A stretch of 64,000 bases of DNA, from the sequence record LC739537.1; one strand, 5' to 3'. Positions 2,701 through 51,784 of the stretch are shown here, piece by piece. The DNA is from Escherichia phage phiWec188. Numbering within the stretch: the first letter of the stretch is position 1; each line of letters starts with the position of its first letter. The position numbers were made by a program, and so were the translations under genes. Under the pieces are notes generated by a model. It was not told where the DNA came from. It did not search any database and worked only from the letters and a program-made list of their open reading frames with translations.

Positions 2701-3456
2701 ATGGGAAAAACAGCTACCGCTAAATCACCGCGCCAGAAGTTAGCTTCTAATGCGAAAGTAGAAAGTCGTTATGCTGCAAAAGCAGTTGGAAATGATGACT
2801 ATCGTTTAGATGGGTTTTCACCAGAAGGAGATCAGCAGCAAATCGTTCAAAGTATGATCTGGAATGATCTTACAGTCGTAAATGCTCCAGCAGGGACAGG
2901 CAAGACTTCCGTGACTTTATGGAAAGCTTTGCAGATGCTTCGAGCAGGAGATTTCCGTAAGCTTCTTTTTATTAAAAACCCGACTGAAGTTGGTGATGAT
3001 CAGATTGGTTTCCTTTCGGGAGATAAAACTGATAAACTGGCGGCGCACTACGAATCAACCAAACGAATCTTCCAGCAGTTTATGACTGCAAACAAATTAG
3101 AGAATGATATTGGTTCCGGTAAGATTGAACTTAATATCCCGAACTACCTACTGGGTGCTACCCTGGACAACACTATCGTGATCATTGATGAAGCACAGCT
3201 TATGTCTCCAGAAACATTAAAACTTCTGGTAGAGCGTGCAGGGATCAACACTCATGTTGTTGTTCTTGGAGATGTTCGTCAAACCTACGCTATCAAAAAG
3301 CGTGCAAACGGTTTGAAAGATCTTCTTGACAAAGTTGCCCCTGAAGGTGAAGATGGTGTTCGTGTCCCTCTGGTAGACTTTATCGGTTATGTGCAGTTAA
3401 CCACAGATGACAACAAACGATCTCGTTTGTCTAAGTTCATCACGGAAATTTATTAA
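2701..3456 (+). CDS. phoH: PhoH-like ATPase
   Basis: Walker A (NAPAGTGKTS) and Walker B (IVIIDEAQ) in PhoH arrangement; ATG 2701 preceded by aaggag. Confidence 0.85.
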   Translation: MGKTATAKSPRQKLASNAKVESRYAAKAVGNDDYRLDGFSPEGDQQQIVQSMIWNDLTVVNAPAGTGKTSVTLWKALQMLRAGDFRKLLFIKNPTEVGDDQIGFLSGDKTDKLAAHYESTKRIFQQFMTANKLENDIGSGKIELNIPNYLLGATLDNTIVIIDEAQLMSPETLKLLVERAGINTHVVVLGDVRQTYAIKKRANGLKDLLDKVAPEGEDGVRVPLVDFIGYVQLTTDDNKRSRLSKFITEIY

Positions 3457-3494
3457 TAACAAAAAGCAAGGATGCTTTATTAAAGGGAGGGTCG

Positions 3495-3992
3495 ATGGTA
3501 CAGACAATTATAGATCGGACTGGTATTGATGAATGTTACCAAACTGGGCTTGTGAAGCCTAACGAGTTCCGACAGATTTGCGTGAATCATATTGAGAAAG
3601 AAATTGCACTAACTTTGGAGAACCTTACCCTCCGAGACAAGCTGTCAATGTTTGTGGCTTGGTGTAAAGGTGAAGATTGGTTATTGGCCCATTTTCAAGA
3701 ACTTTCTGATAGTCAAGAAGGCTTATATGAATGTATAATAGGAATAGCTGGCTCCAATCCTGAACTTCTCCATTTGGAAGAAGAAGAGGCGAAGTTACTG
3801 TTCTTAAGCAACATGTTCAATCGTAAAGCATTGCTTGTTCGTGAGTGTAGTGATCTTTTAAATCATCCACTGGCGATCACAAACGAAATACTGGTTGACA
3901 AAGAGACATTACGTGCGATAGACTATCTGCGCAAGTATGTCAACGGCGGGAAAGCAGTTCTTAAAACATTAACAGAGGAGGAAGCAGAATGA
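3495..3992 (+). CDS. hypothetical protein
   Basis: 165 aa ORF; RBS-like aaagggaggg upstream; ATGA overlap with next gene. Confidence 0.5.
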   Translation: MVQTIIDRTGIDECYQTGLVKPNEFRQICVNHIEKEIALTLENLTLRDKLSMFVAWCKGEDWLLAHFQELSDSQEGLYECIIGIAGSNPELLHLEEEEAKLLFLSNMFNRKALLVRECSDLLNHPLAITNEILVDKETLRAIDYLRKYVNGGKAVLKTLTEEEAE

Positions 3993-4675
3993 CTACAATT
4001 ATCGCAACCAAAAACAAGATCCTTAGCGACGGTAAAGTAACTTTCGGTGGTCGTGTAGATTCAACCAATTTCAAGAAAGTACGTAAGATTGGGGATTATC
4101 TCGTAGGTGGCGCAGGGCGTTTAACTTCGGTTTTAGCTTTCTTCCAGTGGTTCGAACAGAACCTGCAATGTGAAGCGGCGCGTGAGGCAGTGCCTGGGTT
4201 GATGATCAGTTCTAACCCTGATCGTGAAGATGAAGAGTTTATTGCTCTCGTTGTTCACCCAGACGGACGTATTTTCCTGCATGAAGGTAATGATCCTACC
4301 CGTGCATACCCAATCGACGAAGAATACTACGCAGTAGGCAGTGGTTCCGATTTTGCGCTCGCAGCACTGGATGGTGGTGCTTCTCCAGAAGCTGCTATGG
4401 AGGTTGCCAAGAAGCGTGACGCATACTCTGGTGGCGAAACATTCGTTGAAGAATTAGACGAGATCATCGAACTGACTGACGAAGATCTCGAAAACTTCAC
4501 CAAACAAGAACTGATCAACCTGCTTAAGTTTGGCGATCCTGCTGGTGAAGAAACTCCTCGTGACGTGGCAGGTGACGAGACGGCAGGAGAAGTTGTAGTA
4601 GAAAAAGACTTGACTTCAAAACCGGAAAATATTAATCTCGTAAATGTAGCGGATTTCGAGAATCCCGCTTCTTAA
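3989..4675 (+). CDS. HslV/proteasome-like Ntn-hydrolase peptidase with acidic C-terminal extension
   Basis: 228 aa; N-terminal MTTII (Thr nucleophile after Met), KKVRK, GGAG, AVGSGSDFALAAL match HslV pattern; acidic tail about 70 aa. Confidence 0.55.
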   Translation: MTTIIATKNKILSDGKVTFGGRVDSTNFKKVRKIGDYLVGGAGRLTSVLAFFQWFEQNLQCEAAREAVPGLMISSNPDREDEEFIALVVHPDGRIFLHEGNDPTRAYPIDEEYYAVGSGSDFALAALDGGASPEAAMEVAKKRDAYSGGETFVEELDEIIELTDEDLENFTKQELINLLKFGDPAGEETPRDVAGDETAGEVVVEKDLTSKPENINLVNVADFENPAS

Positions 4676-4680
4676 TAAAA

Positions 4681-4702
4681 CTGCCCCTTCGGGGGCATTT
4701 CT
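4681..4702 (+). terminator. intrinsic terminator
   Basis: gccccTTCGggggc hairpin followed by atttctt, right after the stop at 4675. Confidence 0.6.
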
Positions 4703-4720
4703 TACGCAGAGGAGATTACT

Positions 4721-5158
4721 ATGTTGAACGTTCCTGTTAAATTCGTCGATAGCTGTGTTAATGCTTACCAACAAACTTGTAAACGTGCCTCAAACTGTTT
4801 GCAGTCTTTGATTCAAACGCGGTACGTGATCCAAAAGAAAAGAAAGTGGTTTGGTAAGGATTCTTATAGTGTTAATGCGTTCGGGGAGTATCAACTCCAG
4901 TATGACGATAACATGCAACACATCTTAGAGTTTTTACTGATAAAAGATAAAATCTCCCCTGCGGATTACCAGTTACTTAAATTCTACGATCAGAGTTTGT
5001 CTATTGAGGAAGTTATTCAAGATATCCTTTCTCGTAAGACAGATAAGAACACTGTTGGTATTACAAACTTAGAGATGCAATTGCTCAATGAGATCTTTTT
5101 GTTTGTGGAAGATGAGTCTGTAACTAAGGAGGAGCTTTTAAATGGCTTTAAGCTATGA
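4721..5158 (+). CDS. hypothetical protein
   Basis: 145 aa ORF; gaggag RBS upstream. Confidence 0.5.
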   Translation: MLNVPVKFVDSCVNAYQQTCKRASNCLQSLIQTRYVIQKKRKWFGKDSYSVNAFGEYQLQYDDNMQHILEFLLIKDKISPADYQLLKFYDQSLSIEEVIQDILSRKTDKNTVGITNLEMQLLNEIFLFVEDESVTKEELLNGFKL

Positions 5159-5650
5159 TCGTCCAGAGTCCGATTACTATCCGACTCCGCAAAAAGCGAT
5201 TAACTCGTTATTTAGCATTATTGATTTTAAAAATTTGAAAGAGGAAGGATTTACATTTGCAGAACCGTGTAGAGGACAAGCAGCGGCTATTTACCGTCAC
5301 TTTCCTGAAGGTTCTCAGTATTGTGAGCTTGAAGAAGGTAAAGATTATTTTAGTCACGTATGGGAAAATCGTCCCGACATTATAATCACGAATCCTCCAT
5401 TCAAGCTGGCATTAGAGTTCTTGGAAAAGAGCTTGAAAGAAGCAGACGTGTCAGTCTACCTGCTTCGCCTGGGATTCCTTGAGTCAAAGAAACGTCGAGC
5501 GTTTCATCAAGAAAACCCCCTACGAATTTGATTGTACTCTCCGAACGTCCTTCGTTCGTAGCAGGTGGAACAGATAAGACAGCGTATGCTTGGTACGTAT
5601 ACGATCCAAAACAAATTTTGGGTCTAACTCAACCATTTTATTTCGTTTAA
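5142..5650 (+). CDS. putative DNA N6-adenine methyltransferase, interrupted by an apparent -1 frameshift near 5512-5520
   Basis: YYPTP and IIITNPPF motifs; ORF stops at 5531 but the -1 frame continues (LIVLSERPSFVAGGTDKTAYAWYVYD) to stop at 5650; shift falls in an A4C5 run. Confidence 0.4.
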
Positions 5651-5660
5651 GGAGCACACT

Positions 5661-5897
5661 ATGGCTAAATTTACTATGACCGTTTCTATTGATTTTGATG
5701 ATGAGGACGGAGGCATTAACTTAGGTATTGCTCAGAGCCTGGAAGGTGATTTGAACCCGACACAAGCAGCTATGGCGGTATTCTTTAAAGATACCATAAC
5801 AGTTACAGCAACACATTCTGCAAATCAAACTGTAGATTACGGTAGCATGGTTCAAGCCTTGGTTGATGCTCAAAACGGTGAAGATTGGGATGATTAA
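5661..5897 (+). CDS. hypothetical protein
   Basis: 78 aa ORF; aaggag RBS upstream. Confidence 0.5.
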   Translation: MAKFTMTVSIDFDDEDGGINLGIAQSLEGDLNPTQAAMAVFFKDTITVTATHSANQTVDYGSMVQALVDAQNGEDWDD

Positions 5898-6100
5898 TGG
5901 CTTATAATTATTATTGCGTTTACGCAAATGAAGCAAAGAAAGGCGACACTGGCACTAACGTCTATGCAGAATCAGAAACACATGCAAAAGAAATTGGTGC
6001 GATCCTTCTGTCACGTTGGACAGGTGGTAACTATTCTGCTGTGGATTTGTTCGCAGAAATGGATGATACCATCCAAGAAGATACTATCACCACAACCTGA
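5897..6100 (+). CDS. hypothetical protein
   Basis: 67 aa ORF; ATGA-type overlap with upstream gene. Confidence 0.45.
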   Translation: MAYNYYCVYANEAKKGDTGTNVYAESETHAKEIGAILLSRWTGGNYSAVDLFAEMDDTIQEDTITTT

Positions 6101-50644: not shown

Positions 50645-51784
50645 TCAGAACACACTGCTCAGTGTTGCAGATCGTGTAGTGGTTGGTTCCAGAACCACGC
50701 GGAACGTATCTCCAGGTTTATCGCTCACTACTACAATCTTACCACCTTCAATCAGGTCACACTTCAAACCTTCGGCGGTAGCTTTCAGGTCGATGCGTGG
50801 ATCACCATCATCATCCAGGATGACGTAGCTGCTATCTTCGAGAGGCTCCAGTTCTTCGTCCTTCACTGCTTCCAGGTAGATGTTCAGTTCACATGCACCA
50901 GACAAGAACTTGGTAGGAGTGAACTCATGCCAGTTGTTGACCCAGTTAGGCTTGATAGCTTTACCGTTGACAACAATAGAGCTAATCGTCCAGCGTGCAT
51001 CGTTACCCAGAGAGATACCCATCATCTCCAGACAGGTCTTGAACGTCATTTTCGGATAGAAGTTTAACTCTTCTACGATCCCTTGAATAACATCGAAAGA
51101 CAGTTCAGTGCTAACATCCCACAAACGTTGGAAGCTTTCAACATGTTTGCGATTCTTCAGATTCTTGTCCAAGTAGTCCAGCATAGTTTCAATAGACAGC
51201 TTGTCGTAGTTGAAGCTATAGAAGATACGGCTCGGACGGTTGACGAAGTATTCCGAGATGTATCCACTGTTCTTTGTCAGCATGAACAGTTTGTTACCGC
51301 TACCTGTGCCATCCAGCAGAGTCAGCAGTGCTTCCTGATCTTCCTTCTTGGAATACACTTTGTCGAACTCATCGAACAGTACTACTGCGCGTTCAGAGAT
51401 CTTACTCATGAACTCCAGGAAGTTGGCATCAGAATATGGCTGCGTTACCAGAATAGTTGGGATTCCCAGGTCTTCCGCTTCCAACAGAGTGTTACTGATC
51501 AGTTTTGCCAGCATTGTCTTGCCACTGCCTTTTGTACCCGACAACAGGACACCTGTGTTCTTACCTTCTTTACTACGACGAGCGAAGGTACGGATAACGT
51601 GGGCTGCACGTTCTTTGGTTTCCCCGTACAGGCGATCAGGAATCGTGAACTTATCAGCACGACTAAGAGAGTAGTTACCATGTGGATCACAATTGACAGT
51701 CCAAACGCCAGCGGGGAGTTTATCAACCTCTACACCGAAGTCTTTATTAACAATAGCAACATCCCCGTACACTGTGTATTTCAT
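50645..51784 (-). CDS. AAA+ family ATPase
   Basis: 379 aa; Walker A GTKGSGKT, Walker B VVLFDEFDK; agaggagag RBS. Confidence 0.75.
   Translation of the reverse strand: MKYTVYGDVAIVNKDFGVEVDKLPAGVWTVNCDPHGNYSLSRADKFTIPDRLYGETKERAAHVIRTFARRSKEGKNTGVLLSGTKGSGKTMLAKLISNTLLEAEDLGIPTILVTQPYSDANFLEFMSKISERAVVLFDEFDKVYSKKEDQEALLTLLDGTGSGNKLFMLTKNSGYISEYFVNRPSRIFYSFNYDKLSIETMLDYLDKNLKNRKHVESFQRLWDVSTELSFDVIQGIVEELNFYPKMTFKTCLEMMGISLGNDARWTISSIVVNGKAIKPNWVNNWHEFTPTKFLSGACELNIYLEAVKDEELEPLEDSSYVILDDDGDPRIDLKATAEGLKCDLIEGGKIVVVSDKPGDTFRVVLEPTTTRSATLSSVF

Follow-up and report, generated by a model that had tools for sequence, protein, structure and literature searches.

What kind of protease is encoded by a short gene in Escherichia phage phiWec188, and does it act alone, with an ATPase, or in the assembly of the phage head? 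The gene occupies positions 3989-4675, on the plus strand, of a 64,000-nucleotide stretch of the genome (sequence record LC739537.1; hereafter, the window). A first-pass annotation had described its product as an HslV/proteasome-like N-terminal-nucleophile (Ntn) peptidase, with possible roles in head maturation or in the degradation of host factors. The listing of open reading frames (ORFs) shows a single ORF here, of 228 amino acids plus stop, with an ATG start and no in-frame alternative start upstream. The analysis reported below identifies the product, from its sequence, as an Ntn peptidase of the proteasome family whose active site is intact. Its best reading is that of a PPH/RPC-type phage proteasome homologue, an assignment made by matching the protein to the published description of these groups. 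The peptidase is a further member of a known, catalogued and experimentally unexplored family, and not a new kind of system.

The family assignment draws on profile searches and on a structural model. The protein matches the PHROG family phrog_1040, 'peptidase HslV family', with an E-value of 3.4e-58; of the 277 positions of this profile, residues 1-199 align to 14-206. Its final ~70 positions (207-277) cover further C-terminal modules carried by longer relatives (276-379 amino acids), and have no counterpart in the window protein. The Pfam Proteasome family (PF00227) is matched as well, with a narrow pass at 25.5 bits where the gathering score is 22.4. The best sequence matches in the PDB are HslV chains, with Thermotoga maritima 1m4y at an E-value of 1.3e-8. 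An AlphaFold2 model of the monomer, built on 25 homologues, has a mean predicted local distance difference test score (pLDDT) of 80; residues 1-156 are modeled confidently over most blocks of 10 residues, and the score drops to 76 at residues 21-30 and to 68 at residues 71-80. In a Foldseek comparison against the PDB, the top matches of this model are HslV, BPH, and archaeal and eukaryotic 20S beta subunits, with E-values of ~1e-10 and a probability of 1.00; the TM-score is 0.45 for BPH versus 0.53-0.55 for HslV. In the model, therefore, residues 1-156 (positions 3989-4456, plus strand) constitute a catalytic core with the alpha-beta-beta-alpha sandwich fold of proteasome-like Ntn hydrolases (PF00227, MEROPS T1).

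The active site of this core is complete. The motifs quoted in the first-pass annotation are all present, namely MTTII (residues 1-5), KKVRK (29-33), GGAG (40-43), AVGSGSDFALAAL (115-127) and EELDEIIELTDEDLE (154-168). On the plus strand, the codons of the catalytic residues lie at 3992-3994 (Thr2), 4028-4030 (Asp14), 4076-4078 (Lys30), 4115-4117 (Gly43), 4340-4342 (Ser118), 4418-4420 (Asp144) and 4427-4429 (Ser147). HMMER alignments place Asp14 opposite HslV Asp17, Lys30 opposite HslV Lys33, and the GSGS stretch at 117-120 opposite the GSGG of HslV. Conservation was evaluated in 70 non-redundant relatives, mostly viral contigs from IMG/VR together with a few annotated phage records. The threonine directly after Met1, which the first-pass annotation had likened to the Thr1 nucleophile of HslV, is found in 97% of these relatives; Asp14 and Lys30 are invariant (100% each) and Gly43 is kept in 96%. 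Gly117-Ser118-Gly119 is conserved at 97-100% (Ser118 at 97%), Asp144 at 89%, and position 147 is Ser or Thr in 93%. The initiator methionine is presumably removed, given the known specificity of methionine aminopeptidase and as for E. coli HslV (MTTIV), which would expose the threonine as residue 1.

Selection on the core points in the same direction. The ratio of nonsynonymous to synonymous substitution rates (dN/dS) against relatives is ~0.1, a value taken from more distant pairs since synonymous sites are saturated in the core relative to the closest relative, making that comparison uninformative. Because the catalytic set is near-invariant and the core is under purifying selection, an active enzyme is to be expected rather than a decoy. 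Neither a gap in the Thr/Lys/Asp set nor a non-proteolytic fold was encountered; the catalytic set is complete, and the predicted fold is that of a proteasome beta subunit.

Is the protein then an HslV? Measured by the NCBIfam equivalogs for HslV, TIGR03692 and PRK05456, whose cut-offs are 157.75 and 137 bits, it scores only 30.9 and 32.4. In addition, assignment of secondary structure with DSSP on the AlphaFold2 model shows one long helix at residues 45-67 and then no helix across 68-83; that is, helix H2 is absent. The acidic, Pro-containing stretch at residues 66-84 (EAVPGLMISSNPDREDEEF; positions 4184-4240, plus strand), with a net charge of -5, sits where HslV has H2 and a short pore loop, opposite H2 residues 72-92 of E. 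coli HslV. In HslV, the pocket that receives the C-terminal tail of HslU includes F54, F57, A79, K80 and Q114 (PMC6429459); as we read the HslV sequence, A79 and K80 would fall within H2. The positions of F54 and F57, in helix H1, remain hydrophobic in the phage protein (L49 and F52), whereas the segment that would carry A79 and K80 is replaced by the non-helical acidic one. Since the equivalog scores are far below cut-off and H2 is missing, we conclude that the phage peptidase is not a bona fide HslV. The earlier description thus holds at the level of the superfamily, in fold, profiles and catalytic residues, but the name HslV is too specific. Among proteasome homologues, the published account of the superfamily singles out PPH and RPC as the 'sole exceptions' lacking H2, in the passages that bear on these groups (Fuchs, Alva and Lupas 2021, PMC8665760).

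The second distinctive feature of the protein is its C-terminal extension. Past the last core strand, residues 157-228 make up 72 amino acids with 20 Asp/Glu and 5 Lys/Arg, a net charge of -15 and a pI of 4.05. The first-pass annotation had noted an acidic extension of about 70 residues with no equivalent in bacterial HslV; length, charge and the contrast with HslV are borne out, but the extension is not uniformly acidic, its first ~26 residues being a conserved helical motif. This two-helix motif spans residues 160-182 (IELTDEDLENFTKQELINLLKFG; positions 4466-4534, plus strand), with helices at 164-169 and 172-181 in the AlphaFold2 model and pLDDT values of 83-87. It can be summarised as LT.E.L..F(S/T)KE.LI.LL.FG; the clade consensus, (I/L)T.E.L..(F/M)(S/T)KE(Q/E)LL.(L/M)(L/I)(L/F)(T/G/P)G, is found in 70 distinct extended homologues, including those of Vibrio and Aeromonas phages, and some homologues terminate just past it. 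From this pattern, the motif is most likely a functional element, i.e., a docking or oligomer-stabilising site.

The remainder of the extension behaves differently. The distal acidic tail, residues 183-228 (positions 4535-4672, plus strand), is predicted to be disordered, pLDDT staying under 50 over residues 189-228. It shares 7-26% identity with relatives whose cores are ~80% identical, and yet all extended homologues retain a net negative charge there. Values of dN/dS rise from ~0.1 in the core to 0.19-0.28 in the motif and to 0.5-0.9 in the distal tail. Judging from these comparisons, the distal tail keeps its acidic composition only, and is fast-evolving and weakly constrained. Within the conservation set, the core is followed by no more than 12 residues in 56 of the 70 relatives, while the other 14 carry between 24 and 139; these belong to rV5/phi92-like coliphages, to myoviruses of Vibrio and Aeromonas, and to a few contigs of metagenomic origin. 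A Pfam search of the tails of longer homologues returned nothing beyond the Proteasome domain. A terminal motif resembling HeH/SAP, suspected by eye in these longer tails, was confirmed by no tool. This anatomy, a structured motif followed by an acidic tail, is a modest new element of the present analysis.

How might such an enzyme work? With moderate confidence, we propose a catalytically competent threonine peptidase of the PPH/RPC type that forms rings, needs no unfoldase, resembles BPH in its manner of operation, and acts inside the infected cell. Gene order indicates that the protein is made alongside phage functions for DNA metabolism and host takeover, and not with head proteins. Upon removal of the initiator methionine, the threonine would become residue 1 and serve as nucleophile, aided by Asp14, Lys30 and an oxyanion hole at Gly43, as homology and conservation indicate by analogy with HslV and 20S beta subunits. 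The subunits may then self-assemble into rings like those of HslV or BPH via the intact H3/H4 face, and the assembly would cleave peptides, or unfolded or disordered host or phage proteins, with no dedicated AAA+ unfoldase. This last feature is proposed because H2, which forms part of the pocket for the HslU tail, is lacking, because the pore-loop segment is acidic as in BPH, and because no unfoldase is among the recurrent neighbors of the family's genes. BPH itself is described as having a pore loop that is long and acidic, and as apparently lacking an unfoldase partner, in the section of Fuchs et al. that deals with it (PMC8665760). The extension would point outward from the assembly, as the same authors argue for C-termini generally in that part of their text (PMC8665760), with residues 160-182 as a docking or oligomer-stabilising element and residues 183-228 as a weakly constrained, disordered appendage. 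Candidate substrates could be found in host protein recycling, in the removal of specific host factors, or in the turnover of early phage proteins.

Several points weigh against this proposal. Fuchs et al. allow, where they treat the newer proteasome homologues, that some of them may not form rings (PMC8665760), and the loss of H2 could equally well accompany another quaternary structure or a monomer. The absence of an adjacent unfoldase gene is compatible with the use of HslU, ClpX or ClpA from the host. The extension would be dispensable for basic activity, since 56 of 70 relatives do without it, and the case for a role of the two-helix motif is drawn solely from its conservation. Because homologues lie inside head modules in a few lineages, the family may not have one role. 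Finally, the literature searched yielded no experimental study of HslV-like or PPH proteins from phages.

The absence of unfoldase genes near the family bears on both this proposal and its rivals. In the neighborhoods of family members, 109 of the larger neighboring proteins, from 23 lineages, were scanned against Pfam; they include integrases, exonucleases, polymerases, portals and capsids, and none of the Clp, HslU, Lon or AAA families is among the 25 most frequent of the 63 Pfam families matched. Nor does the full annotation of the 97%-identical 'Pseudomonas' phage PsgM04F contain an HslU, ClpX or Lon. One lineage does encode a candidate: gp140 of Vibrio phage qdvp001 (L089:22981-25155), annotated as ClpX, is a protein of 724 amino acids with two AAA+ modules of Clp/Hsp100-like character, in a phage that also has a peptidase with an extended tail. 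It could be the unfoldase partner in that lineage; a gp140 homologue was found neither in the window nor in PsgM04F. In another lineage, an Hsp20 gene (phrog_432, E-value 2e-40) directly follows the peptidase gene in 9 loci (L030:1670-2839 and eight related ones), an adjacency that is a link to protein quality control.

If the phage brings no unfoldase, then the host is the obvious source of one, and the phage protein might replace or mix with host HslV and be driven by E. coli HslU, or by ClpX or ClpA, so that ATP-dependent degradation is redirected to targets of benefit to the phage. Its nearest relatives of solved structure are indeed HslV proteins, the MTTII terminus nearly equals the MTTIV of E. 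coli HslV, and the hydrophobic H1 positions of the HslU-tail pocket are kept, with L49 and F52 in place of F54 and F57 (pocket as defined in PMC6429459). However, H2, to which we assign the pocket residues A79 and K80, is missing, the equivalog scores are far too low, identity to E. coli HslV is ~25%, and the family spans phages of hosts from many phyla. We therefore regard recruitment of a host unfoldase as unlikely. A further point against it is that HslV Lys28, which we take to pair with the C-terminal carboxylate of HslU although the literature searched did not confirm this, aligns to Ser25 of the phage protein.

A monomeric or otherwise non-ring enzyme, acting on one defined host or phage protein as a sequence-specific processing enzyme or as a ligase, and not degrading proteins in bulk, is a further alternative. 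The superfamily includes connectase, a monomeric ligase, and Fuchs et al., in the text devoted to the new homologues, expect unprecedented quaternary structures among them (PMC8665760). The absence of H2 also alters the surface used for ring stacking or for activators, and a conserved motif of the docking type would suit specific recruitment. The model nevertheless lacks the insertion that covers the active site in connectase, only canonical elements being seen in the secondary-structure map, and the helices that make the contacts between rings, H3 and H4, are intact at residues 120-128 and 133-143. On this evidence, a connectase-like enzyme is rather unlikely.

The end of the two-helix motif suggests one more scheme. 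Its pattern, (D/E)-L-(I/L)-x-(L/M/Y)-(L/I/F)-(L/F), resembles the C-terminal peptide with which HslU activates HslV (EDLSRFIL, DLAKYLL). There is a slim chance, judged from this likeness, that the motif is a built-in activator or docking peptide that enters intersubunit pockets of the phage ring and confers constitutive activity without an ATPase, or else that it enters host HslV or HslU and subverts HslUV. Were either the case, it would represent a new mode of regulation for a proteasome-family peptidase, and a new device for phage takeover.

The AAA+ ATPase that the first-pass annotation had located at 50645-51784 is indeed encoded there, on the minus strand, as a protein of 379 amino acids (phrog_2376; PF00004, E-value 3.5e-9). 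A phage-encoded ATP-dependent protease composed of this ATPase and the peptidase would be consistent with the classic-clade AAA character of the former, whose best PDB matches, at weak similarity, are the D2 unfoldase modules of p97/Cdc48, and with the presence of both genes throughout the Stephanstirmvirinae. The distributions of the two families differ, however. The ATPase family occurs mostly in phages of Enterococcus, Bacillus, Staphylococcus, Lactobacillus and Lactococcus and in crAss-like phages, whereas the peptidase is found in phages of Escherichia, Vibrio, Aeromonas, Klebsiella, Rhizobium, Caulobacter and Shewanella; the host groups of the ATPase have no match among the 10 genera listed for the peptidase search, with 11 further genera lying beyond that list. 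The whole 134.7 kb record of qdvp001, which has an extended-tail peptidase, contains no homologue of the ATPase (best tblastn E-value 0.4). Walker A and B motifs were found in the ATPase, but an aromatic-hydrophobic-Gly pore loop was not. Lastly, the gene is ~46 kb away from that of the peptidase, on the opposite strand, in a divergently oriented block of small early genes. A partnership between the two is thus not upheld, and we consider it improbable. The phrog_2376 family also occurs in Herelleviridae and in several jumbo phages besides the crAss-like ones, and has a C-terminal domain of ~170 amino acids.

A role in head maturation, which the first-pass annotation had also put forward, can be judged against the gene order of close relatives. 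The DNA at 3000-6000 of the window is 100% identical to that of Escherichia phage PhiWec190, a myovirus in the Stephanstirmvirinae for which the genus 'Wecvirus' is proposed (PMC12695924), and 97% identical to that of PsgM04F; the PhiWec190 genome paper makes no mention of the peptidase gene (PMC12695924). In PsgM04F, the peptidase belongs to a co-directional series comprising ribonucleotide reductase, dTDP-sugar enzymes, thioredoxin, lysozyme, PhoH, a 165-amino-acid ORF (orf165), the peptidase, methyltransferases, a NinI-like phosphatase, and DprA-like and Sir2 proteins. The head module (terminase, portal, a 159-amino-acid gene, a 372-amino-acid gene, a decoration protein and the major head protein) is on the opposite strand, ~35 kb from the peptidase. 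Its 159-amino-acid gene (L007:25160-25639), in the slot between the portal and the putative scaffold, matches Peptidase_S78_2 (XkdF) with 48.1 bits against a cut-off of 24, as well as PHROG families of head-maturation proteases. The 'DNA methyltransferase' label of this gene is, by these matches, probably wrong, and the gene would be the real prohead protease.

With a conventional prohead protease in the 97%-identical PsgM04F, and with the peptidase gene lying among DNA-metabolism genes, a head-maturation role for the HslV-like protein in this phage group is unlikely. Consistent with this view, the main text of the mass-spectrometry study of rV5 virions makes no mention of a protease (PMC3606486). 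Elsewhere in the family the picture is different. In one locus (L043:4479-10308), the order is terminase, SU10-like portal, the homologue (thus in the protease slot), two small ORFs and a Mu gpT-like capsid protein; in two T7-like contigs (L019:3445-8737 and L024:3227-8605), it is portal, T7 scaffold, in some cases lysozyme, the homologue and a Gp10A capsid protein. These arrangements suggest a morphogenetic role for these distant homologues in those lineages, and they are the argument for regarding the window protein as a prohead or virion maturation protease, a reading that is very improbable for phiWec188. The notion of a non-catalytic decoy, which would sequester or poison host HslU/HslV through its HslV-like overall shape or through an acidic disordered tail able to mimic substrates, is scarcely credible for a very diverse family with a near-invariant catalytic set and strong purifying selection on the core.

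The preferred reading, a stand-alone ring peptidase, can now be placed in its genomic setting. The order lysozyme, PhoH, one intervening gene and peptidase recurs in Vibrio phage qdvp001, where it stands beside a ligase and rIIA/rIIB. When 1,553 ORFs lying near family members at 85 loci were clustered, PhoH (16 loci) and lysozyme (14 loci) were the only recurrent neighbors. The peptidase ATG overlaps the stop codon of the upstream 165-amino-acid ORF (ATGA, 3989-3992), which suggests that the translation of the two genes is coupled, and a Shine-Dalgarno sequence, GAGGAGG, is read at 3975-3981 on the plus strand, 7 nucleotides 5' of the ATG. Past the stop codon, by 7 nucleotides, a GC hairpin resembling a terminator, GCCCC-UUCG-GGGGC (4682-4697, plus strand), precedes a T-rich stretch; its RNA folding energy is -17.6 kcal/mol, with a z-score of -2.3. 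A transcription unit of PhoH, orf165 and peptidase probably ends here, but the evidence is weak, since terminator-like sites are no commoner in the scan than in shuffled sequences. A similar GC-rich tetraloop hairpin is found at 2665-2684 (GGGGC-GCAA-GCCCC), such that this one and the one at 4682-4697 (GCCCC-TTCG-GGGGC in DNA letters) bracket the three genes, and the pair may delimit the unit.

The genes flanking the peptidase are, by sequence comparison, lineage-specific and unrelated to the peptidase family. The upstream 165-amino-acid ORF (3495-3992; phrog_14834) is predicted to be a helical bundle, with a pLDDT of 91, and is confined to Stephanstirmvirinae-like phages; searches with it returned nothing informative in either sequence or structure. 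Compared among E. coli, Vibrio and Aeromonas phages, the ORFs upstream of the peptidase show no BLASTP matches to one another. The idea that the flanking ORFs are degenerate paralogues, akin to alpha subunits, was discarded: the hhalign probabilities against the peptidase family are 0.2% for the 165-amino-acid upstream ORF and 0.7% for the 145-amino-acid downstream ORF.

Other features of this region were noted as well. Within 5142-5650 of the window, around 5519, there is a 1-nucleotide deletion relative to PsgM04F, AACCCACCT becoming AACCC-CCT, which splits a methyltransferase-like gene of 169 amino acids in PsgM04F into ORFs of 129 and 40 amino acids here; the split reflects either a genuine frameshift or an error in sequencing. 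At 26-1739 are genes of a dTDP-sugar pathway, namely the 3' end of an ORF resembling glucose-1-phosphate thymidylyltransferase, a dTDP-4-dehydrorhamnose 3,5-epimerase and a reductase-like ORF, followed by a glutaredoxin/thioredoxin-like ORF at 1736-1996. A related genome has four glycosyltransferases near its DNA polymerase gene. The dTDP-sugar genes may possibly serve modification of DNA or of surface glycans. As to PsgM04F (OR584014.1), its 97% identity to the E. coli phage PhiWec190 over 3000-6000 is accompanied by an AAA ATPase protein that is 100% identical, and the Pseudomonas host recorded for it appears doubtful.

How unusual is such a gene? The first-pass annotation had called a self-compartmentalising protease uncommon in phages. 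This is accurate per genome, in that tblastn with this query alone found homologues in 193 of 50,697 phage records, but the implied novelty is not, as the family is large and catalogued, with a PHROG entry and a published description. Relatives occur in at least 294 IMG/VR stretches as well. A profile search of 1.84 billion representative proteins yielded 11,437 clusters (at 50% identity) at E<=1e-3, of which 4,741 reach E<=1e-10 and 57 reach E<=1e-30; BFVD contains 45 viral structures with the peptidase fold at E<1e-3, and many relatives in GenBank are labelled 'peptidase HslV family'. In Aeromonas phages, there are two tandem paralogues, both matching phrog_1040 (in phage 4L372D, L005:4432-4983 and L005:5001-5885; likewise L015, L016, L017 and L021). 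The upstream copy, of 183-185 amino acids, begins with MTCII and has GCGE for GSGS, while the other, of 275-294 amino acids, has a long tail; the pair could form a hetero-oligomer.

The contribution of this analysis to the known family is thus a well-characterised example and the description of a motif. Since it comes from a cultivable E. coli phage, this copy is a convenient entry point to the numerous phage proteasome homologues. Two questions in particular become addressable, namely whether stand-alone peptidases remodel the proteome of the infected cell, and what partner is bound by the clade-specific C-terminal docking motif.

Among known systems, the prohead proteases of phages (S78/XkdF, U35/HK97, S49/ClpP-like and T4 gp21) are also phage-encoded, but they are unrelated to the protein in fold and catalytic type. 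With 20S beta subunits (PF00227, MEROPS T1), it shares counterparts of Thr1, Asp17, Lys33, Gly47, Ser129, Asp166 and Ser169; it differs from them in being smaller, in having neither a propeptide, nor an alpha-subunit partner, nor H2, and in its phage context. Its RD..SGG motif (D144/S147) is presumably closer to that of 20S beta subunits than to that of HslV. With bacterial HslV (ClpQ), the shared features are the fold, the MTT(I/V) N-terminus with its Thr1 nucleophile, and residues of the Asp17/Lys33/Ser124 type; in contrast, identity is ~25%, the phage protein lacks H2 and, probably, the residues that H2 contributes to the HslU pocket, no hslU gene was found among the commonest neighbor families or in the annotation of the 97%-identical genome, and it bears the 72-residue extension. 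HslV assembles as a dodecamer built from two stacked hexamers. BPH of Thiobacillus denitrificans (PDB 5ovs and 5ovt), a group I proteasome homologue, is among the top structural matches, but it possesses H2 in addition to H1 and assembles into a tetradecamer, whereas the phage protein is only proposed to form rings.

The closest correspondence is with PPH and RPC, as these are characterized in the relevant passages of Fuchs et al. (PMC8665760), with WP_042125023.1 as the published representative of PPH and WP_140207863 as that of RPC; phrog_1040 is taken here to correspond to this phage branch. The shared features are a gene in a tailed phage, a compact core of ~140-155 amino acids, a Thr1/Asp/Lys triad with an oxyanion Gly, the absence of a propeptide, the protein beginning with MTT, and the absence of H2. 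With RPC in particular, the likeness extends to an additional C-terminal region that has no known structural match, which here amounts to 72 amino acids with no Pfam match. RPC is known only from proteobacterial genomes according to that account (PMC8665760), whereas the window protein is borne by a phage. The division of the extension into a two-helix motif and a separate, fast-evolving acidic tail is not described in the text on PPH and RPC in that study (PMC8665760), and it distinguishes the phiWec188 peptidase within an otherwise familiar group.

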